Under the pieces are notes generated by a model. That model did not search any database. It was not told where the DNA came from and saw only the letters and a program-made list of their open reading frames with translations. Source: Alishewanella tabrizica (lineage in GTDB: Bacteria; Pseudomonadota; Gammaproteobacteria; Enterobacterales; Alteromonadaceae). Taken from it: a stretch of DNA of 24,000 nt. Both the position numbers and the translations under genes were made by a program. The DNA lies in assembly GCF_014652375.1 (NCBI RefSeq), contig NZ_BMYR01000015.1, positions 1-24,000 on the forward strand, read 5' to 3'. Positions 1,482 to 18,819 of this stretch are shown piece by piece; within the stretch, counting starts at the first letter, position 1; each line of letters opens with the position of its first letter.

Positions 1482-2183
1482 TTAAATACTGCTTACCCAA
1501 TCCGGTAAAAACTCAATAGCCCATAGCTCTAACACTTTGTCAAAACCGCTAAAAATCATCAGCGCAATTAACAACAAAGCATAGCCAAGCAGTTTGCGGC
1601 CAAATTTACCTGAGGTGCGCAGTTTCGATAGTTTTATCCCTGCCGCATAACCAATGGCGACTAACGGTAAAGCGGTGCCTAGGCCAAAAGCTAACATAAC
1701 GGTAAATGACATCAGCATGCTTTGCCCAGTCGAGGCTAAGGCAATGGCAGCGCCCAAGGTTGGGCCAACGCAGGGTAGCCATACCAGCCCCAGCGAGCCT
1801 CCTACTACAAATTGAAATGCCGGATGATCAGTATTTTCGGTCACTTGCCCGCCAGAAGGTAAGCGACTGGTTAAGCGTGATAGCAACATCGAAAACTGCT
1901 GATTTAACCAATCAATACTCAAAACCAACCCCATGGCTAACATAAAATATGCCGCAAAGGTGCGCATAATCTCTGGCCCTAAACCGGCGCTGAGTAAGAG
2001 ATAGGTCAGTAAAGAGCCGCCTATAGCAAAGGTTAATGCCAAGCCTGCCGCTAAAAACCATACGCCGGTGCGCGAGGCGCGCATTGCCGAAGCGGTAACC
2101 GCAGGGATCATCGGTAGCACACAGGGTGATAGCAGGCTAAGTAAGCCTGCTAACAGTGCTAAGGGGATAGCGGTAAATTCCAT
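1482..2183 (-). CDS. ccdA: Cytochrome c biogenesis / thiol-disulfide electron transporter, CcdA (DsbD-beta) family membrane protein
   Basis: 233 aa and polytopic. It carries the two conserved Cys-Pro helices LSPCVLPMIP and WLPCVGPTLG typical of CcdA/DsbD. Its start is 2 nt after the stop of the upstream thioredoxin gene, indicating an operon. Confidence 0.85.
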   Translation of the reverse strand: MEFTAIPLALLAGLLSLLSPCVLPMIPAVTASAMRASRTGVWFLAAGLALTFAIGGSLLTYLLLSAGLGPEIMRTFAAYFMLAMGLVLSIDWLNQQFSMLLSRLTSRLPSGGQVTENTDHPAFQFVVGGSLGLVWLPCVGPTLGAAIALASTGQSMLMSFTVMLAFGLGTALPLVAIGYAAGIKLSKLRTSGKFGRKLLGYALLLIALMIFSGFDKVLELWAIEFLPDWVSSI

Positions 2184-2185
2184 CG

Positions 2186-2614
2186 TTAATCCGCTTTCTT
2201 GTCATGTTCAGCTATTGCTGCGAATACAACTTTTTCTTTGGTTTGCGCTACGGTTAACCACAGTTGCTCTTCACCACGGTATAGCACTAAGGTAGATTGC
2301 CGCGGTGCTTTAAAATAGGTTACCCAGTCTTTTTGGTTGTCAAAATCCACTTCTAGCACCAGTAGTTCGCTTTGCGGGTTAGCGGCAAGGTAATCATTTA
2401 ATACGTTATGTTGCTTGCGGCAGGTCGGGCACCATGGCGCGTAGACATCAATCAGAATCAGCTTGCCCTCAGCTTGTGCTTGGCGGAATACTTCTTCTGT
2501 AAAGGGCTGTTTATGCTTAGCCAAATGCTCAGTTGCAGCGGTCGCTGGGTTAAAGAAGAAAATCGCGCCGATAATGGCCAGTACAGCAAAGGTAGCAGTC
2601 AGTAGTGTTTTCAT
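2186..2614 (-). CDS. Periplasmic (signal peptide or anchor) thioredoxin-fold protein with a WCPTC active site
   Basis: 142 aa. The N-terminal hydrophobic segment is MKTLLTATFAVLAIIGAIFFF..ATA, followed by APWCPTCRKQ (a CxxC thioredoxin motif). GAGG lies 5 nt upstream of the ATG. The gene sits immediately upstream of ccdA. Confidence 0.85.
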   Translation of the reverse strand: MKTLLTATFAVLAIIGAIFFFNPATAATEHLAKHKQPFTEEVFRQAQAEGKLILIDVYAPWCPTCRKQHNVLNDYLAANPQSELLVLEVDFDNQKDWVTYFKAPRQSTLVLYRGEEQLWLTVAQTKEKVVFAAIAEHDKKAD

Positions 2615-2781
2615 GTGAACCTCGTTAGTTAATAAAACGAGTTCAGTCTAAAACGAGGGGGTAAACAGGGCATCAGCCAGAACAACGGCGCTATCAACCA
2701 AAACACCGGTGTTAGGTTAAGGGTGATTTTAAGCAGTAAGATTTTTTACAGTGATATCCGCGGGTCAGTGCGAGCGCCAGC

Positions 2782-3702
2782 TTAGCTTTGGCTGCTGCGA
2801 TATTCGCCAGGCGAAAGCCCTAATTGTTGTTTAAAAAAACGGATAAAGGCGGTAGCCGACTGATAACCCACAGCGTCGGCAATATGATCTAAACTGTGCT
2901 CGGTATGGATCAGCAAGTAGCGGCTTTTTTGCAGGCGCAACTGGTCTAATAATGATTTAGCCGTCATCCCCATAATTTTATGGCAGCGCTCGGCAAAAGC
3001 GCTTTTTGATAAATAGGCCAGCTCGGCCATATTGTCTACTGTCCAATTGGCTTCTGGTTTATCCATTACGGCCAACACTACACGTCTTAATGCTGTATCT
3101 TGTAATGCTGCCAATAGCCCTTGGCTGATCTGTTCATCGGTTAGCACCTGACGCAATAAATGCAGCACAACGACATCACTTAAGCGGCTAATTGCCGCTT
3201 GGTAACCCGGCTGGCGCAGCGCGGCTTCTTCTTGGATCAATGCGACTAGTGGTGCTAAACGCCCCGATTGCTGGTTTGCTGGCAAGTGAATATAGTCGGG
3301 CATAATTTGCAAGACGTTTGCTGTGAGCGGGGAGTGAATGGCAATGTCGTAGCAAACCAAGCCGCGTTCAATATGTTCAGGCACGCAGAAGTTTTGCAAT
3401 GTTACCGGCGTGCTTTGCGCGGTAACCGGTTGGTCGCTGAGCCAATGGCGTAAACCATGGCTAAAAAAAATCGCATCACCGGCATGCAGTTGTATCTGTT
3501 CAGACAGGCGTCCGGGGATCGCCATCCATAAACTGCCTTGCGTCACAATATGTAAAGCCGCCTTATCAGATTTATCACTTAGCAAGTTCCAGTTATCACA
3601 AAAACCTGATTCAAAATGCAACGCCGATCCAAATGCCAGCTGGGCTAAAAGCTGATCTAAGGCTTCCGGTGTTTCGGTTGATAAGGGCGTTGTTTTGGTC
3701 AT
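2782..3702 (-). CDS. AraC/XylS-family transcriptional regulator with an N-terminal cupin-like domain
   Basis: 306 aa. The C-terminal double helix-turn-helix (WTVDNMAELAYLSKSAFAERCHKIMGMTAKSLLDQLRLQKSRYLL...IADAVGYQSATAFIRFFKQQLGLSPGEYR) is classic AraC. The N-terminus (HIVTQGSLWM...GDAIFFSHGLRHWL) looks cupin-like. It is divergent from the 3854-7509 operon. Confidence 0.9.
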   Translation of the reverse strand: MTKTTPLSTETPEALDQLLAQLAFGSALHFESGFCDNWNLLSDKSDKAALHIVTQGSLWMAIPGRLSEQIQLHAGDAIFFSHGLRHWLSDQPVTAQSTPVTLQNFCVPEHIERGLVCYDIAIHSPLTANVLQIMPDYIHLPANQQSGRLAPLVALIQEEAALRQPGYQAAISRLSDVVVLHLLRQVLTDEQISQGLLAALQDTALRRVVLAVMDKPEANWTVDNMAELAYLSKSAFAERCHKIMGMTAKSLLDQLRLQKSRYLLIHTEHSLDHIADAVGYQSATAFIRFFKQQLGLSPGEYRSSQS

Positions 3703-3853
3703 TGTGGGTTATTTTCCAGCTTTGTACACTTATTCAATAAGTTAGTCTAAAGTTTATCAAAGGCGTTGCAAAGTATCAGTTGCCAAAAGTACGTATTGTC
3801 ACTTGCATCGTCTATCTTTGCAGCAATTGCTCTCGCTTAACAAGGGTTAAAAC

Positions 3854-4351
3854 ATGCTAAAGCCAATTCTGGTGGAAAATCGCCTGCAATTAGCCTTTAT
3901 AGACACTATTTTGCAGCAGGTAAACACGGTTGATTACCAACAGGCGTTTCCTCTTGCAGGTGCGCCAACTATTGGTAAGCATATTCGGCATGTACTTGGG
4001 CATTATGCGCAATTACAACAGGCGGTAACTACTGGGGAAGTCGATTATCGGCAGCGGCAACGCGACAGGCTAGTGGAAACTAACCCCTTGGCGGCGCTGG
4101 GCTTGCTACAGCAGCAGCTGGATTGGCTGGAACGCTTAGCGCAGCTAAATACTAACCCTCATTTGCGCTATCAGTGTGCGGAAGGCGAGGGAACAACCAG
4201 TTTATTGCGTGAACTGGATTTTGTTGCCAGCCATACAGTGCATCATCTGGCGTTATTAAACATCTTGTTACAGCAGTTGGGTTATCTCTTGCCTGAGACG
4301 GCAGGTATGCATAGTTCTACCTTAGCGTATCTTCAGCCATGTGCACCTTAA
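3854..4351 (+). CDS. DinB-superfamily (DinB_2-like) four-helix-bundle metalloprotein
   Basis: 165 aa. IGKHIRHVLGHY near the N-terminus and SHTVHHLALL near the C-terminus fit the His-triad pattern of DinB-like proteins. AAGGG lies 8 nt upstream of the ATG. The 3' end overlaps the next gene by 13 nt (ccATGTGCACCTTAA). Confidence 0.6.
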   Translation: MLKPILVENRLQLAFIDTILQQVNTVDYQQAFPLAGAPTIGKHIRHVLGHYAQLQQAVTTGEVDYRQRQRDRLVETNPLAALGLLQQQLDWLERLAQLNTNPHLRYQCAEGEGTTSLLRELDFVASHTVHHLALLNILLQQLGYLLPETAGMHSSTLAYLQPCAP

Positions 4352-5949
4352 GTTGGCAGTATCAAGCCGACGGTTTGCATTTAGTGTTTAACCGTGACGA
4401 GCAAGTCACTCGGCCAATAGCGTTATTGCCACAGACGGTGACCGAGCGCGGCATTGCGGCCATGATGCCGATAGATCCGCAAGGTGGTGGTACTTGGCTG
4501 GCAGTGAATGAACGCGGGCAAGTGTGGTGTTTGTTAAATGACTATGCGTCGTTAAAGAGCAAGCCTGCGGCAGGGGGCAGAAGCCGTGGTTTACTGGTTA
4601 AGCAATTGGCGCATTGCGCCAACCGCCAACAGCAAGATGCCATAATGCAGCAAGATAAACTGCAGGGCTATGCCCCTTTTAACCTGCTGTTATTTGCTAA
4701 TTGGCAAGAGCCTGAGCAATGGCATTGGGATGGGCAGCAATTAAAACAGTATTTTGCGGTATGTTCACCTGTGTCGAGTTCTGGTCGTTGGCCTAGGCTA
4801 ATACCTGCCTTACGGCGCTGGTATTGGCGCGCCAAGGTATCGCCTGCCACCACGGCTGCACAGCTGTTGGAGATACAGCGTACCGCTAAGCCGATAAATA
4901 GTTTTATCGGTATTGCTATGCAGCGGGCAAGCACCCAGACCGTTAGCACCAGCTATGTCCATTTGCATGCACAGGGCGCTTCCTTGAAATATTGGGCTGG
5001 GCATCCCCGGCAGCAAAGCCAGCAAGCCACGTGCGAAGTGGCTCTGTCCTGGTCGCAAACATGCCCGCCACGTTATAGTGGGTTTCAGCCGCTGGCGTTA
5101 CCTGCTGTACTGGCAAAAACCTTACCCCAAGTGGCGGCCAAGTTACCAATATGGCAAATGCGCTGTTTGCAGCACTGCTTGGCCGAGCGACAACTTAACC
5201 AGGCATTGCGGCAGCTGAGTCAGCAGCCAGATCAGCATTTTTGTGATGGGGCTTTGCAGTATTTAGGCGTAATACCGCAGGTTATTGCTTGCCGTTGGCC
5301 TGCAGCACATAGCCGTCCGGTGTTTGTTTGTAACCATCCAACCGGTGGGCTGGATGGTTTATTGCTTATTGCACTGTTGCAAAAGCGTTATCCTGATCTG
5401 CAAGTGATCGCCAATAATGTGCTGCAGGTTGTTGCGCCATTGGCCTCTTTTATTCTGCCAGTACCAGTGTTTGCCAAGCCTGCCGCGGCAATACCGCAAT
5501 TAACGACCGCTTTTGCGTCTAACTGCCCGTTATTAATTTTCCCTGCGGGGAGAACCGGGCGGCGAAATGCACAGCAGCAGATTGATGATGGGATCTGGGC
5601 CAAATTGGCGGTAACGCTTAGTCTACGCGCACAGCGCACTCTGACTTTGCTGCATATCGATAGCCATAATTCGCGCTTATTTTACGCTATAGCCACGCTG
5701 CGTAATGCGCTACATATCACCACTAATCTTGAAATGTTTTTACTTAGCCGCGAAATGCTGAAGCCTGCAGTCAAGCAGCCTAGAATTTTTGTCGATATTC
5801 CAATGCATCCAATAGAACTGGAAGCTTTGGCAGACTCAGATTGGCAACGTGCACAGCGTTTAAAACAACGCGGTATGCAATTGCCTGTTATTTATAAGGA
5901 GCAGCAAGATGCCGCAGGCTATACCTCTTGCAGTCGACGTACCCGCTGA
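4339..5949 (+). CDS. Fusion protein: N-terminal NRDE/TANGO2-family domain plus C-terminal lysolipid (PlsC/GlsA/OlsA-like) acyltransferase domain
   Basis: 536-aa uninterrupted ORF. N-terminal motifs are MC(2)TL, FNRDEQ, GGGTWLAVNERG, LLND, GRSRGLLV and YAPFNLLLF, which is the NRDE family signature (PF05742-type). C-terminal motifs are VFVCNHPTGGLDGLLL (an H-x5-D variant of the acyltransferase block I) and LLIFPAGRTGRR (an FP(E/A)G block). These resemble the acyltransferases encoded next to OlsB-like GNATs. Confidence 0.8.
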   Translation: MCTLSWQYQADGLHLVFNRDEQVTRPIALLPQTVTERGIAAMMPIDPQGGGTWLAVNERGQVWCLLNDYASLKSKPAAGGRSRGLLVKQLAHCANRQQQDAIMQQDKLQGYAPFNLLLFANWQEPEQWHWDGQQLKQYFAVCSPVSSSGRWPRLIPALRRWYWRAKVSPATTAAQLLEIQRTAKPINSFIGIAMQRASTQTVSTSYVHLHAQGASLKYWAGHPRQQSQQATCEVALSWSQTCPPRYSGFQPLALPAVLAKTLPQVAAKLPIWQMRCLQHCLAERQLNQALRQLSQQPDQHFCDGALQYLGVIPQVIACRWPAAHSRPVFVCNHPTGGLDGLLLIALLQKRYPDLQVIANNVLQVVAPLASFILPVPVFAKPAAAIPQLTTAFASNCPLLIFPAGRTGRRNAQQQIDDGIWAKLAVTLSLRAQRTLTLLHIDSHNSRLFYAIATLRNALHITTNLEMFLLSREMLKPAVKQPRIFVDIPMHPIELEALADSDWQRAQRLKQRGMQLPVIYKEQQDAAGYTSCSRRTR

Positions 5950-6811
5950 GCATATCCAAGCGGAGTTACAGCAGTTAACGCCACTGGCGCAGTTTCGGGG
6001 GTTACAGATTTTTAGCGCTGATGCCCAGCAGATCCCCCACACTATGCAGCAAATTGGTTTGATCCGTGAGGCGGTGTTTCGGCAGGCGGGGGCAGGGCGC
6101 AATTTACCGCGCGATTTAGACGCACTCGATTATGCTGAACCGGCTTATCAGCAACTGGTTGTATGGGACCCACAGCGTTTGCAGCTGGTAGCCTTGTACC
6201 GTTATCAATTAGGTTGGCTGGCGGCCCAGCATGGCCAGCACATTTTGCGAACCAGTCAGTTATTTACCTATAGCAAGGCGTTTACCGAGCAGGTATTGCC
6301 TTATGCCATCGAGCTGGGGCGCTCGGTGGTTAACCCCGCCGCGAAAGCTAGCACCTTAGGTTTTTTTGCGCTCTGGCTTGGCCTAGGGGCGTTGTTAGTT
6401 CGCCACCCGCAGCTGCAATACTTTTTTGGCAATGTTACGCTTTATCCACAACTTGGCCAGGCCGCTATGCAGTTGATCGTGCAGTATTGTCAGCAGCTGT
6501 ATCCGTCTCCCTCACCGATGCTACAAGCCAAGCCTGAACTGTGTTACAAGGCAGCGATGTTAGCGGTTGATGCAACATTGCGGCAAGCCAGTGCCGAACA
6601 ACGGGTTAAACATTTACAGGATCTGCTTAAACCTTTGGCGTGCCGTATTCCCCCCGTGTTGCAGTCTTATCTCAGTGTGGGGAATGCGATCTGGTTTGAT
6701 GATGTCGCGTTGGATCATGACTTTGGCGGTGCTTATGAACAAAGCATCATAGTGCCCTTGGCGGCGTTAAGTAGCAGCTTTCGGCAACGTTTTCTGGAGT
6801 GTCATCTTTAA
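5909..6811 (+). CDS. GNAT-fold N-acyltransferase of the OlsB/GlsB type (Acetyltransf_5; often mis-annotated as 'putative hemolysin'); a putative N-acyl amino acid synthase
   Basis: 300 aa. AAGGAG lies 7 nt upstream of the ATG. The gene overlaps the upstream gene by 41 nt. IGLIREAVFRQAGAGRNLPRDLDALDYAEPAYQQLVVWD and ELGRSVVNP resemble the OlsB-like lyso-aminolipid synthase family. Confidence 0.7.
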   Translation: MPQAIPLAVDVPAEHIQAELQQLTPLAQFRGLQIFSADAQQIPHTMQQIGLIREAVFRQAGAGRNLPRDLDALDYAEPAYQQLVVWDPQRLQLVALYRYQLGWLAAQHGQHILRTSQLFTYSKAFTEQVLPYAIELGRSVVNPAAKASTLGFFALWLGLGALLVRHPQLQYFFGNVTLYPQLGQAAMQLIVQYCQQLYPSPSPMLQAKPELCYKAAMLAVDATLRQASAEQRVKHLQDLLKPLACRIPPVLQSYLSVGNAIWFDDVALDHDFGGAYEQSIIVPLAALSSSFRQRFLECHL

Positions 6812-6897
6812 CATCGTGATCGATTTATTCCGCTCGCATTGACAAGGCCCGCGTTAGCACTGAGACTGCGTTTATTGTTGAGTCGCATTCAGGAACT

Positions 6898-7509
6898 ATG
6901 TACATGATCAGTTACGTTCAGCAACATCGCTTAACACTGCAATTAGGTAATACCTTACCTGCTGCTCAATCGTTATTAGTGTTAGCGGGGCAGCCAGAAC
7001 TGGCAAACGCTTTGGCCCAAAATCCCACGGCGGCCGAGCTGTTAACCGCTATTGAGCAAGCCTATCAAGACGGTTACGAGCAGCAAGCCTCTACCGAATT
7101 TGAGTTACAAGGCATCGCCTTTGCAGGTTATGGTGATCCTTTATTGCATTTAGAGACTTTGAGTGAGGTGTTACCTGCGTTTAAAGCCCAGCGCCATGGC
7201 GTGCCAGTGACCTTGGTGACCTATGGTTTAGTGTCTGCGGCTGAGGCTGAAACGTTGTGCCAGCAGTTGCTAGCGCTCGAAGTAGAGCGGCTTGAGGTAT
7301 TTTTACCCGCTGCCACTCCCCCTGCGTATCAACACGCCGTGCAGCCTTTGCAGTATGGTTTTGCCGAGGTATGCCAGTTTATTCATACCGCAGCAGATGC
7401 AGGTTTATATGTCAGTTGTTTTGCTAATGCGCCAGTAAAAGAAATTGCGGCCATACGCGCGTTAGCGCGCGAGCTTGGCGCGCGTGAGTTGTTAATAAAG
7501 GATATTTAG
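6898..7509 (+). CDS. Hypothetical protein. It resembles a radical-SAM/TIM-barrel segment (GIAFAGYGDPLLHLETL) but has no CxxxCxxC cluster motif
   Basis: 203-aa ORF. AGGAA at 6891-6895 is better spaced for the second ATG at 6904 (MISYV...). The G-x-G-(E/D)-P-L-L motif recalls the SAM-binding GGE motif of radical SAM enzymes. Only three isolated Cys residues are present. It is the last gene of the operon. Confidence 0.6.
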   Translation: MYMISYVQQHRLTLQLGNTLPAAQSLLVLAGQPELANALAQNPTAAELLTAIEQAYQDGYEQQASTEFELQGIAFAGYGDPLLHLETLSEVLPAFKAQRHGVPVTLVTYGLVSAAEAETLCQQLLALEVERLEVFLPAATPPAYQHAVQPLQYGFAEVCQFIHTAADAGLYVSCFANAPVKEIAAIRALARELGARELLIKDI

Positions 7510-7538
7510 TGCTACAGGAGATAGGTGCTCGGAGCTTT

Positions 7539-8744
7539 TTACTGTGCAGTGTTTAACACTGCGATATTACGCCCGGCTTTTTTCGCGGCGTATAAGGCTT
7601 CATCGGCCCGTTTTAGTAGGGCCATTGGTGCTTCGGTTTTCTGTTTGATACAACAGCCTAAGCTAATGGTAACGGTCACGGTTTTTTCACCCGCGCTGCG
7701 GCCACGTTGTTGTTTACCGTTATCCGCTTGGCTGGGGCGATTAGGTTTGCGGATCACCAGCGGGTATTCTGCTACCGCCAGCCGTACCTCTTCGAGTTTT
7801 TCTTCTAAGCGTTCAACATCGTTGTGGTTAAACACCAGCGTAAACTCTTCTCCACCGTAACGATAGGCGGTGAGTCCTTTTATTTGGCTTAACAGCGATC
7901 CCAACAGTTTTAGTACCTGGTCCCCCACATCATGGCCATAGGTGTCGTTAAACTTTTTAAAGTGATCAACATCCAGCATACATACTGCGCTGCGGCGGCC
8001 TAAACGGTTTAAATGTGACATAAGCGCGCGGCGTTGCGGCAATTGCGTTAGCTCGTCTATATAGGCTAAATGCAGCATTTGTAAGGCAAGTGTCAATAAT
8101 ATGGCCAAGGTAGCGGCAATTATTGCCCAGCCAGCCAATGCCAGATTGTGGCTATATTGAATACTTACTAAGGTGGCAAGCCAGACGGCAAATTGGCCCC
8201 ATTGCGCCGGATGCCTGGGGGCTAAATTAATGCTGATTAACCAAAGTCCCGCAATAATGGTGCAAAACCACGCATGTAACCACGTAAAGTGCTGGCTACC
8301 GGGTAGGGTATTAAACACGATGGGCGGCAATTGCGCGGCAGTAAGCCATGTGCTTAGTGGCAATACCAAGCTTAGCAACAAGAGTGCGGGGCCGCTTAAT
8401 AACAGTAATAGTCCGGCCGGTTTAGTCATAAGTGGTTTGGGTAGCAGGGCCAGTGCGAGCATCATGCTCGCACTGAGCAGTGGCAGTACCGTAAGATAAT
8501 TTATAGGGCTATCGGCTATGAGTACGCGGCTAGATTGATAATGTAACACCGCGAAATGGCTGGCTAAGAGAACGATCCAATACACCCATTCTGTTTGTCG
8601 CATTAATAAAGCCAACCCTAATACCGTTGCTAGTGCTAGGTAGGCGGTGCCGGGAAAAGGTAATAACGTAAATACGGCCAAATGCGGATAAAATCCCAAG
8701 GCAATCAACAACAATACGACAGGTAAGAGGATAATAGCAGGCAA
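7539..8744 (-). CDS. Membrane-anchored diguanylate cyclase (multi-TM N-terminal domain plus GGDEF domain with a GGEEF motif)
   Basis: 401 aa with about 8 hydrophobic helices, then DELTQLPQRRAL...DVDHFKKFNDTYGHDVGD...RYGGEEF...RADEALYAAKKAGRN. The start is TTG with GAGG 5 nt upstream. I see no RxxD I-site just before GGEEF. There is a basic insertion of roughly 15 aa (RKPNRPSQADNGKQQRGRSAGE) before the TISLG strand. Confidence 0.85.
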   Translation of the reverse strand: MPAIILLPVVLLLIALGFYPHLAVFTLLPFPGTAYLALATVLGLALLMRQTEWVYWIVLLASHFAVLHYQSSRVLIADSPINYLTVLPLLSASMMLALALLPKPLMTKPAGLLLLLSGPALLLLSLVLPLSTWLTAAQLPPIVFNTLPGSQHFTWLHAWFCTIIAGLWLISINLAPRHPAQWGQFAVWLATLVSIQYSHNLALAGWAIIAATLAILLTLALQMLHLAYIDELTQLPQRRALMSHLNRLGRRSAVCMLDVDHFKKFNDTYGHDVGDQVLKLLGSLLSQIKGLTAYRYGGEEFTLVFNHNDVERLEEKLEEVRLAVAEYPLVIRKPNRPSQADNGKQQRGRSAGEKTVTVTISLGCCIKQKTEAPMALLKRADEALYAAKKAGRNIAVLNTAQ

Positions 8745-8839
8745 TGTAACCTCAGGTTGGCAGCGCAGTTAGTTAAAGAATGGCATTTCGCAACAAGGCT
8801 TATGGAAGCGCTAGTGTAACAGTATCTGGTTAGCAAAAT

Positions 8840-8865
8840 ATAGCGTGATAACGATAGCGTGATAA
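8840..8865. repeat. Tandem direct repeat ATAGCGTGATAA-N2-ATAGCGTGATAA (14-bp period) in a divergent promoter region
   Basis: Two perfect 12-mers at 8840-8851 and 8854-8865. They lie just upstream of a possible extended -10 element (TGgTAAAAT, 8892-8900) for the hydrolase gene. Confidence 0.6.
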
Positions 8866-8941
8866 AGGCTGATGCATATCCGGCAGGGGACTGGTAAAAT
8901 AGTACAGCATATCTTCAGCGCCTTTTCTGGCCAGGAACATC

Positions 8942-10867
8942 GTGAACGCACTTGTTAGCTTTTTATCTACTTTATGCCTGTTAGGGACGCAGAATCGCCT
9001 GTGGAAGCTAGGCGCAGTGTTGGTATTTTTAGGGGTAATAACGGGGTGTGCTTCGGTATCGGTAGATACGGTAGATAGTCGCGATTACGTAAAGCAGCGG
9101 CGTGGTGATGTGCTCACTACGGGTGAACTTAGCCAATATACTGGCGTAGTATTGCAAATTTTAGGGCTGGATGAAAAAAGCTGCCAGCGCCAAGCTTCAC
9201 AATGTGCTGATATGTTAAGTACTGCCATGGGATTAACCACCGAGCAGCGTTTGTCTACCATGGCCGAGCTGTGGTTACATCAAGCCTTATGGTATGGCAA
9301 GCCAAGACAAAAAGCGTTATTGGCAGAGTTAGATGCCTATCTGATGAGTGCGCGTTATGCTTATGCTTATCTGTTTTACTCTGGTGTAGCGCCTTACGAG
9401 CGCTTATTTGCAGATCGGCAAACGCAAGTGCGTGATTATTATAATTTTGCTGTTCAGCAAGCGGCCACCTTATTGTTTGCTCAAGAGCAGCGGCGTTGGC
9501 TATCTGAATCGACCACGGTGTTGCACACGGATAAGTGGCAGTTACGCAGTTTATTGCAGCATCAACGCTTTCGAGAACAGGGTTTACCCGAGCAATTGTT
9601 GCCGGCGAATAATTGGTCTTTTCGGGGATTACGTAATCAATATCGGCGCGATGGTTTAGGGGCTGAATTGGTCGCGATAGGAAAAAGCAGCCAACGTTGG
9701 CAAAGCGAGCAGGGCTTTAGTGAGCTACCGGTACCGGTTGTTACGGCGTTATTAAGTTTTGGTGGCGAGACCTTAGAAGAGGTATTACGCACGAATCAAG
9801 CAACGTTACATGTGTTGGATCCTCTGCAGCAACGCGACGTAAAGATTGCCGGCAATCCGGTACCCTTAGCCGCAAATTTTACTGCGGGCTATGGCTTGTG
9901 GTTAGCCCGTTCCGATTTTTCCCGCCAAGCGTTTTGGAATTTAATGGGCACCCGTGATGCCTTAGCCGAGCCGCACTTGTTCTTAATGCAACCGTACGAT
10001 CCCGATCGCAAAATTATTGTCATGTTGCATGGCATTGCTAGCAGCCCCGAAGCGTGGGTCAATACGGCGAATGAGGTATTAGGCGATGATACCCTGCGCG
10101 AAAATTATCAGGTATGGCAGTTATATTATCCTACCAATTTACCGCTGATCATAAATGTACAAAGTATTCGGCAAAGCATCCATCAAGCCCTACAGCATTT
10201 TGACCCGGCGGGCAGTGCGGCCGCTTCGCAAGATATGGTATTAATTGGCCACAGTATGGGCGGCTTATTGTCGCGCTTGTTGGTGTCGAATTCGGGTGAA
10301 CAGGTGCTACAGCGGATTTTAGCGCAGCGGCATATGTCGGTTGAGCGCAAAGCCGTATTTTTCGAACGTTTTCATCAAGATCTTACCTTTAATGCGCTGC
10401 CGGGTGTTACCCGAGCTATTTTTGTGGCGGCGCCACATCGCGGTACCAGTGTGGCTGATAATCGCCTAGCCCGTTGGTTGGCGGGGTTAATTACCTTACC
10501 CGTAGCGGTATTAGAGCGCTTTGCCCAAGCGGCTGAGTTATTGGCCGATCCTGATGATGCCGAATCGACCAAGGTAGTGCGTTTTACCAGTATCGAAAAT
10601 CTGAGTGATAAAGATGGTTTTATTATCGCGGCGGCAGATTTACCCATTAGCCCTGCTGTGCGTTACCACTCTATTATTGGTGTTGAACAACCCGCGCTAC
10701 CCATTACTGAACAATCGGATGGTGTCGTTCCTTACTTAAGTGCGCATTTGGAGGGGGCTGAATCGGAAATGATTATTCGTTCGGGCCACAGTGTACAAGA
10801 AACGTCAGCCGCTATTTTAGAAATACGACGTATTCTGCATCAGCATTTGGTGGAGCTACCAAATTAA
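8942..10867 (+). CDS. Lipoprotein with a C-terminal alpha/beta-hydrolase (lipase/esterase-like) domain and a ~340-aa N-terminal domain of unknown function
   Basis: 641 aa. GTG start with AGGAA 4 nt upstream. Lipobox LGVITG-C at about residue 35. The hydrolase part shows VMLHGIASSPEAW (oxyanion region) and the nucleophile elbow LIGHSMGGLLSR, with late SDGVVP and GHSV as candidate Asp and His. Confidence 0.75.
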   Translation: MNALVSFLSTLCLLGTQNRLWKLGAVLVFLGVITGCASVSVDTVDSRDYVKQRRGDVLTTGELSQYTGVVLQILGLDEKSCQRQASQCADMLSTAMGLTTEQRLSTMAELWLHQALWYGKPRQKALLAELDAYLMSARYAYAYLFYSGVAPYERLFADRQTQVRDYYNFAVQQAATLLFAQEQRRWLSESTTVLHTDKWQLRSLLQHQRFREQGLPEQLLPANNWSFRGLRNQYRRDGLGAELVAIGKSSQRWQSEQGFSELPVPVVTALLSFGGETLEEVLRTNQATLHVLDPLQQRDVKIAGNPVPLAANFTAGYGLWLARSDFSRQAFWNLMGTRDALAEPHLFLMQPYDPDRKIIVMLHGIASSPEAWVNTANEVLGDDTLRENYQVWQLYYPTNLPLIINVQSIRQSIHQALQHFDPAGSAAASQDMVLIGHSMGGLLSRLLVSNSGEQVLQRILAQRHMSVERKAVFFERFHQDLTFNALPGVTRAIFVAAPHRGTSVADNRLARWLAGLITLPVAVLERFAQAAELLADPDDAESTKVVRFTSIENLSDKDGFIIAAADLPISPAVRYHSIIGVEQPALPITEQSDGVVPYLSAHLEGAESEMIIRSGHSVQETSAAILEIRRILHQHLVELPN

Positions 10868-10983: not shown

Positions 10984-12867
10984 TTAGTAATTTACTGAAA
11001 TATTGTCTGAACAGGTGCTGCTACCTGTTTGACAGATACGGTAGGTTAAAGTACCCGTGCCACGTAGATTAGTATTGTCAGTATAATTGCCGGTATTATT
11101 TACGGTAGCGATTCTGCTGTTATTCCGGAATATATCAACTTGGTTGCTGTTAGCGCCGGTCCAACTTAAATCTGCACGAACCCTGTTGGATACTTTATAC
11201 GTAACTGCGTCTAAAAGGATAGGGCCGCTGGAATCTCCTCCTCCATTATCGCCACCGCCATTACCCGCGTCACCGGCACATCCAAAGGTCGATAACTGTT
11301 GATGAGCAGCTAACGCTTTTACGATGCCATATCCAAAATAGACATCTTTTCCTGACGTGCCAGCATCTTGCGCTGTTGTTTTAAGTGCTTGGCGGATCTC
11401 AGTACCGGTACAAGTAGGATGATTAGACCAAACCAAAGCAGCAATACCGGCTACGGCAGGTGTTGCCATTGACGTTCCACTCATATAGCCATAATCAGCC
11501 GCACCAACAGAAATATTGGCGCTACCTGCTGAAATAATACTATTACGATCTTCCAAGGCGACACCAACAGCAGGGATAGAAGTCGTGTTAGTTGTTCCTA
11601 AGGTTGCAGCGAGTAATCCTGGCTCATTGTTGATGATAATTGCACCAATACCACCTGAAAGCTCACAGTTACGAACTTTGTCCACAAATGAAATTTGACC
11701 GCGATCTATGGTACACACCTTTCCTGCTGCTGCTGTATTTGTCGTGGTTGCAAGCCCCATGTAATAGGTTTGACCAGAAACAGAACCTTGGTTTTCCATT
11801 GCCGATGCAGCATAACCGGTGTTATCCATGGTTAAGCTGGCCATTGTCGCACCACCAGAGGGATAAGTTGACAGGGTATCCACTCCACCAGCAGTTGCCT
11901 CGACACAGAAACCATCATGTGTTTCTGTTGTTTGGGTTTTCCCTCTTCCAGAAGAAACAGTACAGCTTGGGAACTGAGAAAAAGACGCGATTTGATTGTT
12001 GGCATCATTTGCGCCAATCATCATGACTGATTTATAGCCTGCAGGATATGAGCGCGTAGTGTTGCCCGAATTACCTGCTGCAGCAAGAACCAAGCCGCCA
12101 TTAGCAGTAAAATTATTAAAAGCATTTTCTTCAGTGCTGTTTGCGCCACCGCCACCTAAGCTCATGTTAATAATCTTTGCGCCTGCAGCAGCACATAAAT
12201 TAGCTGCATGGGCCAAGCTAGATGAATAGCCCCAACCGCTATCGTTAAATACTTTTATAATATGCAGCGGGTTACCTGGCGCCATACCAATAACGCCAAA
12301 GGTGTTATCGGCTGCGGCGATAGTTCCGGCGACATGTGTGCCGTGAGGGCCGCCATCACGAAACCAATCCCCCGTTCCTGAATCACTATTGCCAGTAACA
12401 CGAGACCAGACAAAATCGGGGTTATATCCACCTGTTTCGCCCGTCTCACGTGAAATGCCTGAATCAATAACACACACTTTTTTTGCATTATTTAGTTGTA
12501 GCGTTAGTAAGTTTGCTTGCGATTGATAAATAGCATAGGGTTTTAGTTGTTGTGCATTGGGATTACCCGCATCGTCTTTAAATAATGACATGGGGTAACG
12601 ACGTTGATCTATTTCAATTAATTTAATGTGCGGGTTATTTAATAAACCACGAACCTCTTCGAGGTTTCTCCCATCAAAAGTGGCAGCGATAAATCCATCA
12701 GAATCTATTTCAATGTGCCCACCCATACGAACGGTAAGCGCTTTGACAATGCCTTTATTACCATTTTCTACTTGGATGACATAACGATCACTTGCCATTG
12801 CATGGGAAGCAAGGCCTAAAGCAAGTAATGTGGCTAACGATACGCGTGTCAATTTATTAGAATTCAT
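10984..12867 (-). CDS. Secreted subtilisin-like serine protease (peptidase S8) with a PA-domain-like insertion and a C-terminal beta-rich domain
   Basis: Catalytic motifs VCVIDSGI (Asp), HGTHVAGTIAA (His) and GTSMATPAVAGIAAL (Ser). The insertion GKVCTIDRGQISFVDKVRNCELSGGIGAIIINNEPG looks PA-like. A Gly-rich linker GNGGGDNGGGDSSG is followed by an ~85-aa tail. I place the start at the ATG at 12867 (AGGAA 7 nt upstream), giving the signal peptide MNSNKLTRVSLATLLALGLASHAMA. The 12996 start in the ORF track adds 43 unlikely residues. Confidence 0.9.
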   Translation of the reverse strand: MNSNKLTRVSLATLLALGLASHAMASDRYVIQVENGNKGIVKALTVRMGGHIEIDSDGFIAATFDGRNLEEVRGLLNNPHIKLIEIDQRRYPMSLFKDDAGNPNAQQLKPYAIYQSQANLLTLQLNNAKKVCVIDSGISRETGETGGYNPDFVWSRVTGNSDSGTGDWFRDGGPHGTHVAGTIAAADNTFGVIGMAPGNPLHIIKVFNDSGWGYSSSLAHAANLCAAAGAKIINMSLGGGGANSTEENAFNNFTANGGLVLAAAGNSGNTTRSYPAGYKSVMMIGANDANNQIASFSQFPSCTVSSGRGKTQTTETHDGFCVEATAGGVDTLSTYPSGGATMASLTMDNTGYAASAMENQGSVSGQTYYMGLATTTNTAAAGKVCTIDRGQISFVDKVRNCELSGGIGAIIINNEPGLLAATLGTTNTTSIPAVGVALEDRNSIISAGSANISVGAADYGYMSGTSMATPAVAGIAALVWSNHPTCTGTEIRQALKTTAQDAGTSGKDVYFGYGIVKALAAHQQLSTFGCAGDAGNGGGDNGGGDSSGPILLDAVTYKVSNRVRADLSWTGANSNQVDIFRNNSRIATVNNTGNYTDNTNLRGTGTLTYRICQTGSSTCSDNISVNY

Positions 12868-13125
12868 AGCGAGGTTCCTACATATAATCCTGGGGCAATA
12901 ATTGCCTATGTTTTTATTCGTCGACCAAAAGTGTGATTTGGTCGCATTCCTAATGTGGAATAAACCAGTAATTGCACGGAGAAAAATAAAAAGCAAGTAG
13001 TTAAATCATGTTTTCCTAAAAGGCTCAAAATGTGTAAAAAAAACGCACTAAAAACGTTTTTTAAATGTATTGAAAACCTGGTTGATCATATTTAGCTTTG
13101 GTATCGCTATGCAGCATCTTTATGC

Positions 13126-13200: not shown

Positions 13201-14580
13201 ATGAAAGCACCTTTGTGGGATGCCGCCTTAGTGGCGAAATACAATATGAATGGGCCGCGTTATACATCCTATCCCACGGCGCTTGCTTTACAGCCAGATT
13301 TTGCACTAAGTACACGGGTTAATGCCATACAGGGTGCAAGTAGCGCGCTAAGCCTGTATGTACATCTACCGTTTTGTCAGCAGCTTTGTTATTACTGCGG
13401 TTGCAATAAAGTGGTGACTCGCCAGCAGCATAAAGCCGATCAGTATTTAACCGCGCTGGCGCAAGAAATGATGCTATACCAGCCGCTGGTGCAGGATAAG
13501 GTGATTTCGCAACTGCATTTTGGTGGCGGTACGCCAACATTTTTAACCGAAGCGCAGTTAAGCCGGTTGCTGGCATTGTTACGGCAGCATTTCAGCATTT
13601 TACCTGATGCAGAGATTAGCATTGAAATCGATCCGCGTAGTTGCAGCGACGAGAAGCTGCGCCATCTAAAGCAGTTGGGTATTAATCGCGTGAGCTTTGG
13701 GGTGCAGGATCTGGATGAAACCGTCCAGATTGCGATAAACCGCGTGCAAGATACCGCACTGATCCGCCATCAGGTGGCGTTGTGTCGTGAACTGGGCTTT
13801 CGCTCTATCAATTTAGATCTTATTTATGGTTTACCGTATCAAAACGCAACATGTTTTGCTGAAACCCTCGCCGAGGTCATTCGGTTAAACCCCGATCGTA
13901 TTTCGTTATTTAGCTATGCACATTTACCTGAACGCTTTGCGGCGCAGCGTAAATTTGCGGCCAGCAGTTTGCCGCAGCCCACCGAGAAGTTGGCACTGAT
14001 GCAATTGGCAATTCAACAGTTTGTGGCCGCGGGGTATCAGTGTATCGGTATGGATCATTTTGCCAAACCTCATGATGCGCTCGCCCTGGCCCAGCAAGCG
14101 GGTAAATTACAACGTAACTTTCAAGGTTATACTACGGCCGGCCAAGATGCCTTGCTAGGATTAGGCGTATCCAGTATCAGCCAAGTAAACGGCGTGTTGT
14201 GGCAAAACAGTAAGGACTTATCAGCCTATTATAATGATATGACCTTTGCTACAACGACAGGAACGCTCCCTGCTGCACGTGGGTTTGCGCTAAGCTGGGA
14301 TGATCGTTTACGTGCCGCCCTGATTAGCCAAGTGATTTGTCATTTTACCTTAGATATCGCTGCCTTTAGCCAACACTGGCAGCTAACGCATTTTTGGCAG
14401 TATTTCGAAACAGCCTTACAACAGTTACAACCCTTTATGGAAGATGGTTTGATCGAGGTCTATGCCGAGCGACTGCAGGTAACACCCTTAGGGCGGCTTT
14501 GGGTACGCAGTATCTGCGCCTGTTTTGATGCTTATTTGCCGCAAGTACAACGGCAGCTGCAGTATTCTTCTGTGGTATAA
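13201..14580 (+). CDS. hemN: Oxygen-independent coproporphyrinogen III oxidase (radical SAM)
   Basis: 459 aa. Essentially collinear with E. coli HemN as I remember it: KYNMNGPRYTSYPTA, LSLYVHLPFCQQLCYYCGCNK (CxxxCxxC), HKADQYL, LHFGGGTPT, GVQD, NLDLIYGLP, RNFQGYT. Confidence 0.95.
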   Translation: MKAPLWDAALVAKYNMNGPRYTSYPTALALQPDFALSTRVNAIQGASSALSLYVHLPFCQQLCYYCGCNKVVTRQQHKADQYLTALAQEMMLYQPLVQDKVISQLHFGGGTPTFLTEAQLSRLLALLRQHFSILPDAEISIEIDPRSCSDEKLRHLKQLGINRVSFGVQDLDETVQIAINRVQDTALIRHQVALCRELGFRSINLDLIYGLPYQNATCFAETLAEVIRLNPDRISLFSYAHLPERFAAQRKFAASSLPQPTEKLALMQLAIQQFVAAGYQCIGMDHFAKPHDALALAQQAGKLQRNFQGYTTAGQDALLGLGVSSISQVNGVLWQNSKDLSAYYNDMTFATTTGTLPAARGFALSWDDRLRAALISQVICHFTLDIAAFSQHWQLTHFWQYFETALQQLQPFMEDGLIEVYAERLQVTPLGRLWVRSICACFDAYLPQVQRQLQYSSVV

Positions 14581-15650: not shown

Positions 15651-17474
15651 ATGGCGTCTCTGTTAAGTTCCGAGGAAATGTTAAAACCTGTTGCCATGCT
15701 AAGTTCTGAGGAAATTTTCCGACAATTAGCCGATGTTTTGGCGCAAAGTGGTTATCCGAATTTTTTACCCTCCTTAGTGCAGCGGGTGGCGGAGATTTTA
15801 GCGGTTGATTACTGCTTAATTGCCGAAACCAGTTCTGATCCTGCGCAAGCACAAACCCTTGCCCTGTGGGGACAAGGCAAGCTACTCGATAATATTCGCT
15901 ATCCTTTAAAAGGGTCGCCTTGTGAAACTGTGCCCGAGCGCGATCCCTGTTTATATTCGCAGGGCGTTTGCCAAGCTTTTCCAGAGGATCAGTTATTAAT
16001 TGATTTAGGAATTGAAAGCTATTTAGGCATGCCTATTCTGACCAGCAGTGGTAATAAGCTGGGCATTTTATGCATTATGACAACCTCGCCTCTGCATTTG
16101 CCGGACATTGGCCGCGAGGTATTACGTATAGCAGCAGCACAAATTGGGGCAGAATTAGAACGTACGCAAAGTGCCCACTTTATTCGTAAACTTACATACC
16201 GCGACACTGTAACGCAACTGCCTAACCGTGCACATTTATTAGAAACGCTGCAAAACTGGCCCCATACGGGTACTGTCACGTCGGCCTTAGGTATCGTGCT
16301 CGTTGATATTTGCCGTTTTAAAGAAATTAACGATATTTTCAGTTTTAAAATTGGTGATGAAGTATTGCAGGCCGTGGCACAACGTTTACGCACCGCTTTA
16401 CCTGAAAGCTGTTATATCGCGCGATATTCAGCCGATGAATTTGCCTTAATTACCCCTATTAATTCAGCGCAAGAGTTACAACTGGTATGCCATAGCGTGC
16501 AACAGCTGTTTGTGGCTGCCCTGCATTGTGCCGGCAAAGCCTTTATGCTGGATATAAATTTAGGCTGTGCTATATCTGGCTTGGCTGAATTAAACGGTGC
16601 CGAGTTATTGCGTTTTGCCAGTATTGCCTTGGCTGAAGCAAAACAAAGTGGCCAAGAGGTGAAGTTTTTTGAACCTGCTATGAGCCAAGCCTTAAATCAA
16701 CGGCAAAAGGTACTGGAAAAGTTTCTTGTTGCCTTGCGTACCGAGCAATTGAGTTTACATTATCAACCCCAATTTGAACTGGCCAGTGGCGTATTATCAG
16801 GTGCTGAAGCTTTATGTCGTTGGCATGATGCTGAGTGGGGCTGGATCAGTCCGGCAACGTTTATTCCGCTTGCCGAAGAGCGCGGTTTAATGCCGGAGCT
16901 AGGTAATTGGGTGATGCAAACCGCCTGTCGGCAACTGCGCGCATGGCAAGCACAAGGCTGGCAATTGCCAGGACGTTTATCGATTAACGTGTCGGCGCGC
17001 CAGTTAGAGAGCGAGCATCTGATCAGTGAGTTTACTCGGTGTAGTAGTGGTATTGCTCCTGAACAGATTGAGCTGGAATTTACCGAGTCGCTCATTATGC
17101 GTAATCCGGAACAATCGCTGCGTTTAATGGCTGATCTTGAAGCCATGGGGTTTTGTTGGGCGATAGACGATTTTGGTACCGGTTACTCGTCATTAGCCTA
17201 TCTCACGCGGTTTCGGGCGACTACCTTAAAAATTGATCGGGCTTTTATTAGCAATATTCCTGGCGATCATCACCATAATATGGTGGTAAAAACCATTTTG
17301 GCGATGGCCAACAGCTTAAATATGATCACCATTGCTGAAGGGGTAGAAACGGCTGAACAAGCTGCGTATTTACAGCAATTAGGCTGTGATCGTGCACAGG
17401 GCTATTGGTTTGGTAAACCCGTGAGTGCTGCGGATTTTGCGCAAACGTGGTTGGCTAAATCTACCGTAAAATAA
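15651..17474 (+). CDS. GAF - degenerate GGDEF (SADEF) - EAL protein; predicted c-di-GMP phosphodiesterase
   Basis: 607 aa. The GAF-like N-terminus includes VDYCLIAE...SYLGMPIL...GILCIM. In the GGDEF domain the signature reads RYSADEF. The EAL domain carries EALCRW, INVS, ELEFTE, DDFGTGYSSL, KIDR, EGVE and QGYWFGKP, so the catalytic set looks intact. The start codon is uncertain because none of the ATGs at 15651, 15678 or 15696 has a well-spaced SD. Confidence 0.9.
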   Translation: MASLLSSEEMLKPVAMLSSEEIFRQLADVLAQSGYPNFLPSLVQRVAEILAVDYCLIAETSSDPAQAQTLALWGQGKLLDNIRYPLKGSPCETVPERDPCLYSQGVCQAFPEDQLLIDLGIESYLGMPILTSSGNKLGILCIMTTSPLHLPDIGREVLRIAAAQIGAELERTQSAHFIRKLTYRDTVTQLPNRAHLLETLQNWPHTGTVTSALGIVLVDICRFKEINDIFSFKIGDEVLQAVAQRLRTALPESCYIARYSADEFALITPINSAQELQLVCHSVQQLFVAALHCAGKAFMLDINLGCAISGLAELNGAELLRFASIALAEAKQSGQEVKFFEPAMSQALNQRQKVLEKFLVALRTEQLSLHYQPQFELASGVLSGAEALCRWHDAEWGWISPATFIPLAEERGLMPELGNWVMQTACRQLRAWQAQGWQLPGRLSINVSARQLESEHLISEFTRCSSGIAPEQIELEFTESLIMRNPEQSLRLMADLEAMGFCWAIDDFGTGYSSLAYLTRFRATTLKIDRAFISNIPGDHHHNMVVKTILAMANSLNMITIAEGVETAEQAAYLQQLGCDRAQGYWFGKPVSAADFAQTWLAKSTVK

Positions 17475-17603: not shown

Positions 17604-17632
17604 TTGAAAACATACAGTCATGTATGTATATT
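17604..17632 (+). promoter_or_regulatory. Sigma70-type promoter TTGAAA-17nt-TATATT, with the palindrome ACATACA-GTCA-TGTATGT filling the spacer (candidate AcrR/TetR operator)
   Basis: The -35 element is at 17604-17609 and the -10 element at 17627-17632. The 7-bp inverted arms are at 17610-17616 and 17621-17627. The half-site resembles the TACATACA / TGTATGTA arms of the E. coli AcrR operator as I recall it. It lies about 55 nt upstream of the acrA-like start. Confidence 0.6.
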
Positions 17633-17685
17633 GCTGCAACATAATCTTCGCTATTCAACTTTCCATCTTTCTTCAGGGGCAACCT

Positions 17686-18816: not shown

Positions 18817-18819
18817 GCT

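Follow-up and report, generated by a model that had tools for sequence, protein, structure and literature searches.

We analysed a 24,000-nucleotide (nt) stretch of the Alishewanella tabrizica genome (contig NZ_BMYR01000015.1, positions 1 to 24,000 of the forward strand; hereafter, the window) and found in it a compact three-gene module. It forms a branch of the GlsBA/OlsF aminolipid family that is uncharacterised and carries two extra conserved components. The module consists of a gene for a small DinB-fold protein, a gene that fuses an NRDE/TANGO2 domain to a lyso-aminolipid O-acyltransferase (NRDE::acyltransferase), and a gene for an amino-acid N-acyltransferase of the GNAT superfamily. Comparison with related loci showed that the aminolipid core captured a separate DinB-NRDE module, the NRDE domain being joined N-terminally to the O-acyltransferase.

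The three genes lie on the plus strand. The DinB/YfiT-fold metalloprotein (165 amino acids, aa) is encoded by the first gene of the conserved module, at 3854..4351. The 536-aa fusion protein, encoded at 4339-5949, comprises an NRDE/TANGO2 domain of the Cys N-terminal nucleophile (Ntn) hydrolase fold (4339..5070, approximately residues 1-245) and a GlsA/OlsF-N-type O-acyltransferase domain of the Acyltransf_2 family (5089..5949, approximately residues 250-536). The GlsB/OlsF-C-type N-acyltransferase, a PF13444 GNAT supported by both Pfam and NCBIfam, follows at 5909..6811. An initial annotation of the window had described these genes, together with a radical S-adenosylmethionine (rSAM)-like gene and an AraC-family regulator, as a four-gene operon with its divergent regulator. 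An open reading frame (ORF) check recovered all five ORFs in the places it had given, and the Pfam and NCBIfam scans upheld all of its domain calls. The spacing of the genes was also as it had described: the DinB and fusion genes overlap by 13 nt, where ATGTGCACCTTAA reads M-C-T-L in the fusion frame and C-A-P-stop in the DinB frame, the GNAT start precedes the end of the fusion gene by 41 nt, and a gap of 86 nt separates the GNAT gene from the ORF that begins at 6898. The DinB gene is translationally coupled to the fusion gene, since its stop codon overlaps the NRDE start, and a Shine-Dalgarno sequence, AAGGAG, lies 7 nt upstream of the GNAT ATG (5909). The proposal that all of these genes act as one unit stood for the three-gene core of DinB, fusion and GNAT; synteny did not support the inclusion of the rSAM-like and AraC genes. 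Family placement and synteny, on which the initial annotation had offered to be refuted, upheld it as far as the three core genes are concerned. A promoter and terminator scan of 2500-9000 gave site counts no higher than those in shuffled sequence and was therefore uninformative on transcript boundaries. An Rfam search at E<=0.1 over 2400-9000 returned zero matches, indicating that a riboswitch or small RNA does not explain the regulation.

The two acyltransferases were placed by profile comparison. Residues 257-497 of the fusion protein matched Acyltransf_2 (PF19576) at 110.6 bits (cutoff 27, E 8.2e-32), and its C-terminal half matched the NCBIfam GlsA model (NF053697) at 154.8 bits (cutoff 260, E 2.4e-45) and the N-terminal half of OlsF at 108.7 bits (E 2.8e-31; cutoff of the OlsF model NF052615, 620). 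In an alignment of 17 sequences, the acyltransferase boxes NHPxGGxDG (N332-H333-P334-x-G336-G337-x-D339-G340) and FPxG (F401-P402-x-G404) were invariant or nearly so, with a His-Asp spacing that reads HX5D where the classic motif is HX4D. A Foldseek search with this half matched the GPAT structure 1k30. The GNAT protein matched Acetyltransf_5 (PF13444) over residues 52-148 at 36.6 bits (cutoff 22.4, E 7.8e-9), the NCBIfam GlsB model (NF053696) at 188.9 bits (cutoff 300, E 1.1e-55; a full-length alignment, 11-297 of 300) and the C-terminal half of OlsF at 156.7 bits (E 8e-46; cutoff 620). These results confirmed the proposed core of an OlsB/GlsB-type N-acyltransferase and a PlsC-superfamily O-acyltransferase. 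The GlsB score lies under the equivalog threshold, so that the head-group specificity of that family (glycine) is not transferable to the window protein.

The pair is most similar to GlsB and GlsA of Bacteroides (BT_3459/BT_3458), which likewise combine a PF13444 N-acyltransferase with a PF19576 O-acyltransferase in adjacent genes and whose models were the best NCBIfam matches; co-expression of glsBA in E. coli leads to glycine lipid (review PMC12971839). The window locus differs in that its O-acyltransferase carries the NRDE/TANGO2 domain of about 245 aa at the N-terminus and a DinB-fold gene is coupled upstream. The hosts differ as well: gut Bacteroidota for GlsBA, and here members of the Gammaproteobacteria, Balneolales and Spirochaetes whose names point to alkaliphiles or soda lakes. 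OlsF, the bifunctional ornithine-lipid synthase, matched in both halves and with identical domain order, but in the window the two halves are separate genes and the extra fusion, NRDE::acyltransferase, is at the other end.

The N-terminal part of the fusion protein belongs to the TANGO2 family. Residues 1-123 matched Pfam TANGO2 at 54.6 bits (cutoff 22.6, E 2.3e-14), with the model aligned over its first half only (1-128 of 257). The protein begins MCTLSW...FNRDE, and Cys2 was present in 16 of 17 diverse fusion proteins, the exception being a protein without its first three residues. R19, D20, E21, N67, S82 and G84 were invariant in the same 17 proteins, and position 18 was N or S. In a profile alignment to human TANGO2 (8sv7), the conserved residues paired with N25-R26-D27-E28, N75 and R88-G89; a 2026 crystal-structure paper assigns a putative catalytic role to Cys2, Asn25, Arg26, Asp27 and Asn75 and describes G89C as pathogenic (PMC13044924). 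Read from these alignments, the putative catalytic residues of the NRDE domain are intact in the fusion family. An AF2 model of the whole fusion protein had a mean predicted local distance difference (pLDDT) of 88.5 and a predicted template-modelling (TM) score of 0.88, and this confident single-chain model points to a fixed inter-domain arrangement. The top Foldseek matches of the N-terminal half were human TANGO2 (8sv7/9bwa, E ~1e-9) and a bacterial NRDE protein (3gvz, 4e-8), with target TM scores of about 0.6; acyl-CoA:isopenicillin-N acyltransferase, bile-salt hydrolases, penicillin V acylase and acid ceramidase were further fold matches. The domain thus shares with human TANGO2 and PF05742 the alpha-beta-beta-alpha Ntn fold of its best PDB matches, the N-terminal Met-Cys, the N-R-D-E motif and the equivalents of Asn75 and Arg88-Gly89. 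It differs in its identity, about 15-16% in structural alignment, and in its setting: the bacterial domain is fused to a lysolipid-type acyltransferase and has a DinB-fold partner, whereas human TANGO2 is a standalone, mitochondrial protein.

The protein encoded at 3854-4351 scored slightly below both Pfam gathering cutoffs (DinB, 22.2 against 24.8; DinB_2, 21.3 against 23), and some of its orthologues pass the Pfam DinB cutoffs in precomputed annotations. Its AF2 model had a pLDDT of 93.9, and Foldseek matched it at probability 1.00 to 1rxq, 2qe9, 2nsf, 3dka and 2f22 (TM 0.56-0.69). YfiT (1rxq), YizA (2qe9) and mycothiol-dependent maleylpyruvate isomerase (MDMPI, 2nsf) were the top matches; mycothiol S-transferase (MST) and the N-terminal domains of EgtB and OvsA came further down the list with much weaker E-values. 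A PDB sequence search with the DinB profile gave one spurious match only, the relatives being detected by the fold search. The small protein is homologous across phyla with its His and Arg residues invariant: H43, R45, H46, R68, R70, R119, E120, H127, H130 and H131 did not vary in alignments of 25-28 sequences. We infer a metal triad of H46, H127 and H131, picked from the five invariant His. The protein therefore resembles the DinB/YfiT metalloenzymes (bacillithiol and mycothiol S-transferases, MDMPI, the EgtB N-domain) in its four-helix bundle (TM ~0.6-0.7) and in histidines at the expected metal positions, and differs in scoring below both Pfam cutoffs and in its own Arg/Glu set (R45, R68, R70, R119, E120). 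The subfamily is large, with 2,624 matches, and has members that are not accompanied by NRDE, as in Halomonas and Cyclobacterium.

Some neighbours of the DinB-like genes recurred as well. In Cyclonatronaceae, Cyclobacterium and Arcticibacterium (L002 2168-5289, L073 1-6000, L074 3469-5995), DinB-like genes are immediately preceded by genes for an extracytoplasmic function (ECF) sigma factor, a small putative anti-sigma factor, a tRNA_anti-like protein and YceI, with DUF4833 in addition in Bacteroidota, and this recurring block suggests an ECF-controlled stress regulon that includes the DinB subfamily. A DUF547 gene was found near the DinB-like gene in three lineages unrelated to one another, namely Salinispirillum (L001 4626-5453), a Spirochaete metagenome-assembled genome (MAG; L004 3199-4077) and Cyclobacterium (L073 8207-8956).

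Conservation of the module was assessed from neighbourhoods in Salinispirillum, a Cyclonatronaceae MAG, a Spirochaetaceae MAG, Alkalimonas, Arsukibacterium, Aliidiomarina and two other Alishewanella, and from a scan of one genome per GTDB species, which gave 62 loci, 28 of them with a full-length fusion. Gene presence was counted by hidden Markov model (HMM) re-scoring. Both sources showed the same recurring order, a small DinB-fold protein, then NRDE::acyltransferase, then GNAT, in three phyla (Gammaproteobacteria, Balneolales and a Spirochaete). A DinB-like gene was directly upstream of the fusion in 20 of the 28 genomic fusion loci, and a GNAT was downstream in 22; contig ends cut three of the six loci without GNAT (L020, L028, L035). 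In an exhaustive profile search, the full-length fusions formed about 40 clusters at 50% identity. We also considered, and rejected as too strong, a rule by which DinB and NRDE would each occur only with the other; it is contradicted by eight Balneolales loci and by four soda-lake contigs that likewise have no adjacent DinB-like gene. Another candidate exception, an Aliidiomarina protein (P0016) seemingly without the NRDE domain, was rejected because tblastn and HMM searches placed the domain in a 567-nt 'gap'; the fusion gene there (L007 / L016 4663-6264) is annotated only as a 343-aa acyltransferase. The P0016 gene call is probably truncated, or the gene carries a frameshift, and the NRDE domain upstream looks intact in the sequence. 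At two Balneolales fusion loci with neither DinB nor GNAT (L026 2724-3212, L027 5990-6526), an ORF of 162-178 aa with no Pfam match is present instead and overlaps the 3' end of the fusion gene.

The record names of fusion-bearing genomes are mostly alkaliphile or soda-lake labels. Alkalimonas, Arsukibacterium, Aliidiomarina, Natronospirillum, Salinispirillum and Cyclonatronaceae are names of the alkaliphile type, and the fusion is also found in CSSed, DLM2 and EA383 MAGs and in SL_3KL and SL_8KL sediment contigs, prefixes which we take to denote soda-lake studies. Judged from names, the module is apparently concentrated in alkaliphilic and soda-lake lineages. Titles cited in PMC11966569 describe Salinispirillum marinum and Natronospirillum operosum as haloalkaliphilic. 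Open-access literature yielded nothing useful on the polar lipids of the host genera.

The origin of the two extra components became apparent from NRDE proteins outside the fusion. The exhaustive profile search found many standalone NRDE proteins of 240-265 aa, which scored 210-290 bits against the N-terminal half. At the closest of them, P0078, a DinB-like gene ends 2 nt before the NRDE gene and matches the DinB profile with an hhalign probability of 100 (E=5e-40). This pair sits between DoxX and Pyr_redox_2 genes, and no aminolipid genes were called in this 9-kb locus. We then used the single protein P0078 as the query in a metagenome scan, followed by HMM analysis of the 63 loci obtained. 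All 36 DinB-like matches in these NRDE loci were directly upstream and on the same strand, and a DinB-like gene was directly upstream in 31 of the 44 unfused NRDE loci with at least 500 nt of upstream sequence. DinB-NRDE is a widespread two-gene module in its own right.

The DinB-NRDE pair was found with aminolipid genes in three independent arrangements. The NRDE domain is fused to the acyltransferase in the window; DinB, NRDE, acyltransferase and GNAT are four colinear, overlapping and unfused genes at L104; and DinB and NRDE stand beside an OlsF-type fused enzyme on the other strand at L063, L088 and L105. Neither DinB nor NRDE was present at 21 plain acyltransferase and GNAT pairs (L038-L058). 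This series of fusions and fissions, together with the bare pairs that have neither component, is the strongest evidence for a functional link. At the Opitutales-type loci L063 (3730-5967) and L088 (4693-6309), a protein of about 540-576 aa is encoded between the DinB-NRDE pair and the OlsF-like gene. The L063 protein carries a VTT/DedA domain at its N-terminus, matches ATP-grasp weakly and is followed by a small Acetyltransf_1 GNAT; an ATP-grasp ligase at this locus could mean an elaborated head group.

The initial annotation had described the NRDE and DinB components as lying outside any known aminolipid pathway, and both are indeed conserved additions that are absent from an aminolipid review (PMC12971839) and from the papers listed by full-text searches. 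No paper among the matches listed by these searches of open-access literature combined TANGO2 or NRDE with aminolipid terms or with DinB, and neither the fusion nor the DinB partnership is mentioned in that review or in two TANGO2 papers (PMC13044924, PMC11867700). The architecture is visible in public annotations (UniRef, Pfam labels), and an NCBI protein of A. tabrizica with 100% identity to the fusion protein is labelled 'NRDE family protein'; the novelty is therefore that of a system undescribed in the searched literature, not of one unseen.

The AraC-family regulator (2782..3702, minus strand) is divergent from the operon, and the 151-nt intergenic region at 3703..3853 is the presumed promoter/operator of both transcription units. 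Its Pfam domains are Cupin_6 (7.6e-33) and HTH_18 (8e-21), and its best full-length NCBIfam match was RclR (NF040475) at 98 bits (cutoff 400), a distant likeness. C35, C106 and C117 were invariant in its orthologues; C106 and C117 align with RclR cysteines, and C35 lies near the N-terminal Cys of RclR but is not aligned with it. The regulator thus resembles RclR in its two domains, in two aligned cysteines and in standing divergent from its presumed target operon, as rclR does from rclABC; it differs in its target genes, which are unrelated to rclABC, and in its low identity. The gene was found only at Alteromonadales-type loci (of the Alishewanella, Alkalimonas, Arsukibacterium and Aliidiomarina types, 62-98% identity) and is a lineage-specific regulator outside the cross-phylum core. 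Thiol- and redox-related genes are repeated neighbours of the module: the window has thioredoxin and DsbD, other fusion loci have DUF547, Pyr_redox_2 and thioredoxin, and a CMD-like gene is found in Alishewanella. The ECF-sigma/YceI block occurs at the Cyclonatronaceae fusion locus and beside DinB-like genes in Bacteroidota, and Arcticibacterium has thioredoxin/peroxiredoxin and Grx-Pyr_redox_2 genes near a TANGO2 gene. Induction by a small molecule through the AraC regulator, as put forward initially, is doubtful in view of the oxidant sensor RclR as the closest family, the three invariant Cys and these thiol- and redox-rich neighbourhoods. We consider that the aminolipid branch is probably under stress- or redox-linked control, unlike the better-known triggers of aminolipid synthesis, which are phosphate limitation, temperature, low pH and low salinity.

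The surroundings of the regulator gene varied between relatives. At the Alteromonadales-type loci, AraC usually faces three additional genes. In Alkalimonas, Arsukibacterium and A. longhuensis, these same-strand genes separate AraC from DinB (L005 3887-5535, L006 3896-5535, L008 3901-5522), encoding a 150-aa protein, an HD_5/HD-domain protein of about 307 aa and a protein of 74-82 aa; they may be additional regulon members, and they are missing from A. tabrizica and from the Alishewanella loci L009 and L012. A bufferin-type operon (BufA1, MbnB/TglH/ChrH, HvfC_N, DoxX) adjoins AraC at L005 (306-2863), L007 (1-2217) and L008 (340-2880), and the same position in the window is taken by thioredoxin and DsbD-like genes (1482-2614, minus strand).

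We propose, as the most likely explanation, that the locus is a GlsBA/OlsF-type synthase of acyloxyacyl amino-acid lipids with a captured DinB-NRDE Cys-Ntn acyl-handling add-on, and we hold this reading to be about evenly poised between right and wrong. As known for its family, the GNAT would N-acylate an amino acid, and the C-terminal domain of the 536-aa protein, by its family membership, would then O-acylate the 3-hydroxyl of the acyl chain. The NRDE domain may bind or transiently carry the fatty-acyl donor through its exposed N-terminal Cys2 and a fatty-acyl-binding pocket, which is a guess, and may pass the donor on to the neighbouring acyltransferase active site or edit it for that site, with the DinB-fold protein as a putative metal-dependent partner of the NRDE domain. 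The acyl-carrier idea is consistent with two findings on human TANGO2, namely that the purified protein binds C16/C18 acyl-CoA via its NRDE motif and that its loss leads to lysophospholipid accumulation (PMC11867700). In A. tabrizica, the operon would probably be controlled by the divergent RclR-like AraC protein through conserved cysteines, which lead us to propose a response to oxidant or redox stress and not to a sugar-like ligand.

Several results weigh against this proposal. Most DinB-NRDE pairs occur without aminolipid genes, among DoxX, Pyr_redox_2, GST and thioredoxin genes, and this thiol/redox setting means that the native chemistry of the pair may concern thiols and not acyl delivery. 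The trio is not obligatory: at eight fusion loci from Balneolales MAGs no DinB-like gene adjoins the fusion, and at three of these (L026, L027, L029) a GNAT is missing too despite room for it. The GlsA and GlsB scores fell below the equivalog cutoffs, indicating that the enzymes of the window and those of Bacteroides are not orthologous. Identity between the regulator and E. coli RclR is no more than 26% (256 aa), and the regulator scored well below the family cutoff. Finally, human TANGO2 did not act as a lysophospholipid acyltransferase in vitro (PMC11867700).

The thiol setting can also be read as a sign of thiol-conjugate, mercapturate-like logic, in which DinB would behave as do the bacillithiol and mycothiol S-transferases, the best-studied of its relatives, and NRDE would be an amidase that trims the conjugate, so that the pair makes or modifies the head group; the amino compound freed in this way, for example a cysteine S-conjugate, would then be N- and O-acylated by the GlsB- and GlsA-type enzymes. 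Parallels are Mca and Bca in mycothiol and bacillithiol detoxification, EgtC after EgtB, and GGT after GST. Such a route would fit the YfiT and MDMPI fold matches of DinB (with mycothiol S-transferase and the EgtB/OvsA N-domains at much weaker E-values), the standalone pairs among DoxX, Pyr_redox_2 and GST_C genes, the Arcticibacterium redox genes near TANGO2, the thioredoxin, DsbD, DUF547, Pyr_redox_2 and CMD-like genes that flank fusion loci, the RclR-like regulator, and the standing of non-peptide amides as classic Ntn hydrolase substrates (PMC13044924). We nevertheless consider it unlikely, because the NRDE domain is fused to the O-acyltransferase and not to the N-acyltransferase that consumes the head group, and because TANGO2 binds the acyl portion of acyl-CoA (PMC11867700); the nearby redox genes, moreover, may mean shared regulation and not shared chemistry. 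A role in turnover or editing would make NRDE an amidase or thioesterase that removes acyl groups, by deacylating the N-acyl amino acid or hydrolysing wrong acyl donors, so that the fusion remodels or proof-reads the lipid. A degrading activity in one protein with the product-completing enzyme would be futile without regulation, and the conserved DinB partnership would be left unexplained; for these reasons we regard it as quite unlikely, although the nearest characterised folds are those of amide hydrolases (bile-salt hydrolase, penicillin V acylase, acid ceramidase) and the full NRDE catalytic set is conserved. One fold serves for either hydrolysis or acyl transfer, as bile-salt hydrolase and isopenicillin-N acyltransferase illustrate (PMC13044924).

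The initial five-gene model, with lipid modification by the rSAM-like protein and AraC-mediated induction of the operon by a small-molecule ligand, is largely refuted by synteny, and we regard it as highly improbable. The rSAM-like gene (6898..7509, plus strand) is adjacent to the module, on the same strand after the 86-nt gap, and is also adjacent in L009, L011 and L012. Its product is truly radical-SAM-derived and, as initially noted, has no Fe-S motif: it matched TIGR04038 at 55.7 bits (cutoff 129.7) over model positions 40-185 only, so that the Cys-motif region is missing, and CxxxCxxC was absent from the window protein and nine aligned homologues (0 of 10 family members), in which an AG-GDPLL box is invariant. 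The gene follows the module only at those Alishewanella-type loci, and at L009 a CMD-like gene stands between it and the GNAT gene. No rSAM-like gene was found beside the module in the Alkalimonas, Arsukibacterium, Aliidiomarina, Salinispirillum, Balneolales or Spirochaete loci, and in A. longhuensis its locus tag (04300) and that of the fusion (04420) are 12 tag numbers apart. The family comprises 112 homologues (P0303-P0414; 49-80% identity) in Alishewanella, Rheinheimera, Arsukibacterium and Alkalimonas. Rheinheimera is absent from the fusion protein matches; yet one MAG labelled Rheinheimera (L011) has the fusion. The AraC gene is missing at all non-Alteromonadales loci. The rSAM-like family occurs away from the operon and independently of it; we therefore judged the gene to be a bystander outside the module, and its role as a module of the system was not borne out. 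The public labels of the family, 'hydrolase TatD' and 'pyruvate-formate lyase-activating enzyme', look like mis-annotations.

The proposed acyl-handling role of the DinB-NRDE add-on bears on TANGO2 itself. The human disorder TANGO2 deficiency is a severe metabolic disease, and there is still dispute over the biochemical function of the protein: haem trafficking, acyl-CoA binding and Cys-Ntn hydrolysis of an unknown substrate have been proposed (PMC11867700, PMC13044924, PMC12782551), with fatty-acid derivatives as the proposed targets of the hydrolase activity (PMC13044924). Independent genomic evidence for a role of the TANGO2 family in lipid acyl transfer comes from the conserved bacterial fusion of an NRDE domain with an O-acyltransferase of the lysolipid type, from the versions that are colinear but unfused, and from the DinB partner that is nearly always present. 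These features also suggest a DinB-fold protein as an unrecognised partner of this family, and the locus offers a handle on TANGO2 function through a simple E. coli assay. A broader reading, which we place on the unlikely side, is that DinB-NRDE is an ancient enzyme unit of two proteins acting on fatty-acyl thioesters or amides, that its repeated capture by lysolipid-type acyltransferases in bacteria reveals the native job of TANGO2 as that of a Cys-Ntn acyl-carrying or editing partner which feeds lysolipid acyltransferases, and, as part of the same reading, that the lipid made here belongs to a previously undescribed aminolipid class typical of soda-lake bacteria. If true, it would explain why lysophospholipids accumulate on TANGO2 loss despite the lack of acyltransferase activity in TANGO2, and it would provide TANGO2 research with a tractable assay in bacteria.

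Other genes in the window and at related loci were also recorded. In two Alishewanella species (L008 and L009, 8487-9023 in both), the gene that begins 14 nt after the GNAT gene encodes 178 aa, with an HGCHYC motif and a weak match to CMD/AhpD; it is absent from the window. The window encodes at 8942-10867 a 641-aa protein with a lipoprotein-like N-terminus and weak alpha/beta-hydrolase matches (Abhydrolase_6, PGAP1, DUF676 lipase-like), which may be a lipase or esterase by these matches, and L011 has a copy, 63% identical, in the same position. Genes for cyclic di-GMP signalling are abundant in the window and encode an HDOD protein (558-1370), a membrane GGDEF protein convergent with the rSAM-like gene (7539-8744, minus strand) and a GAF-GGDEF-EAL protein (15651-17474); Salinispirillum (L001) and A. 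longhuensis (L008) likewise have GGDEF/EAL genes after the module. The remaining genes recorded encode a secreted subtilase with a PA domain (10984-12996, minus strand), a genuine HemN-type radical SAM enzyme (13201-14580), an RND efflux pair made up of an HlyD-type adaptor and an AcrB-type pump (17620-21957), and a Na+/H+ antiporter family protein (22728-23867, minus strand).

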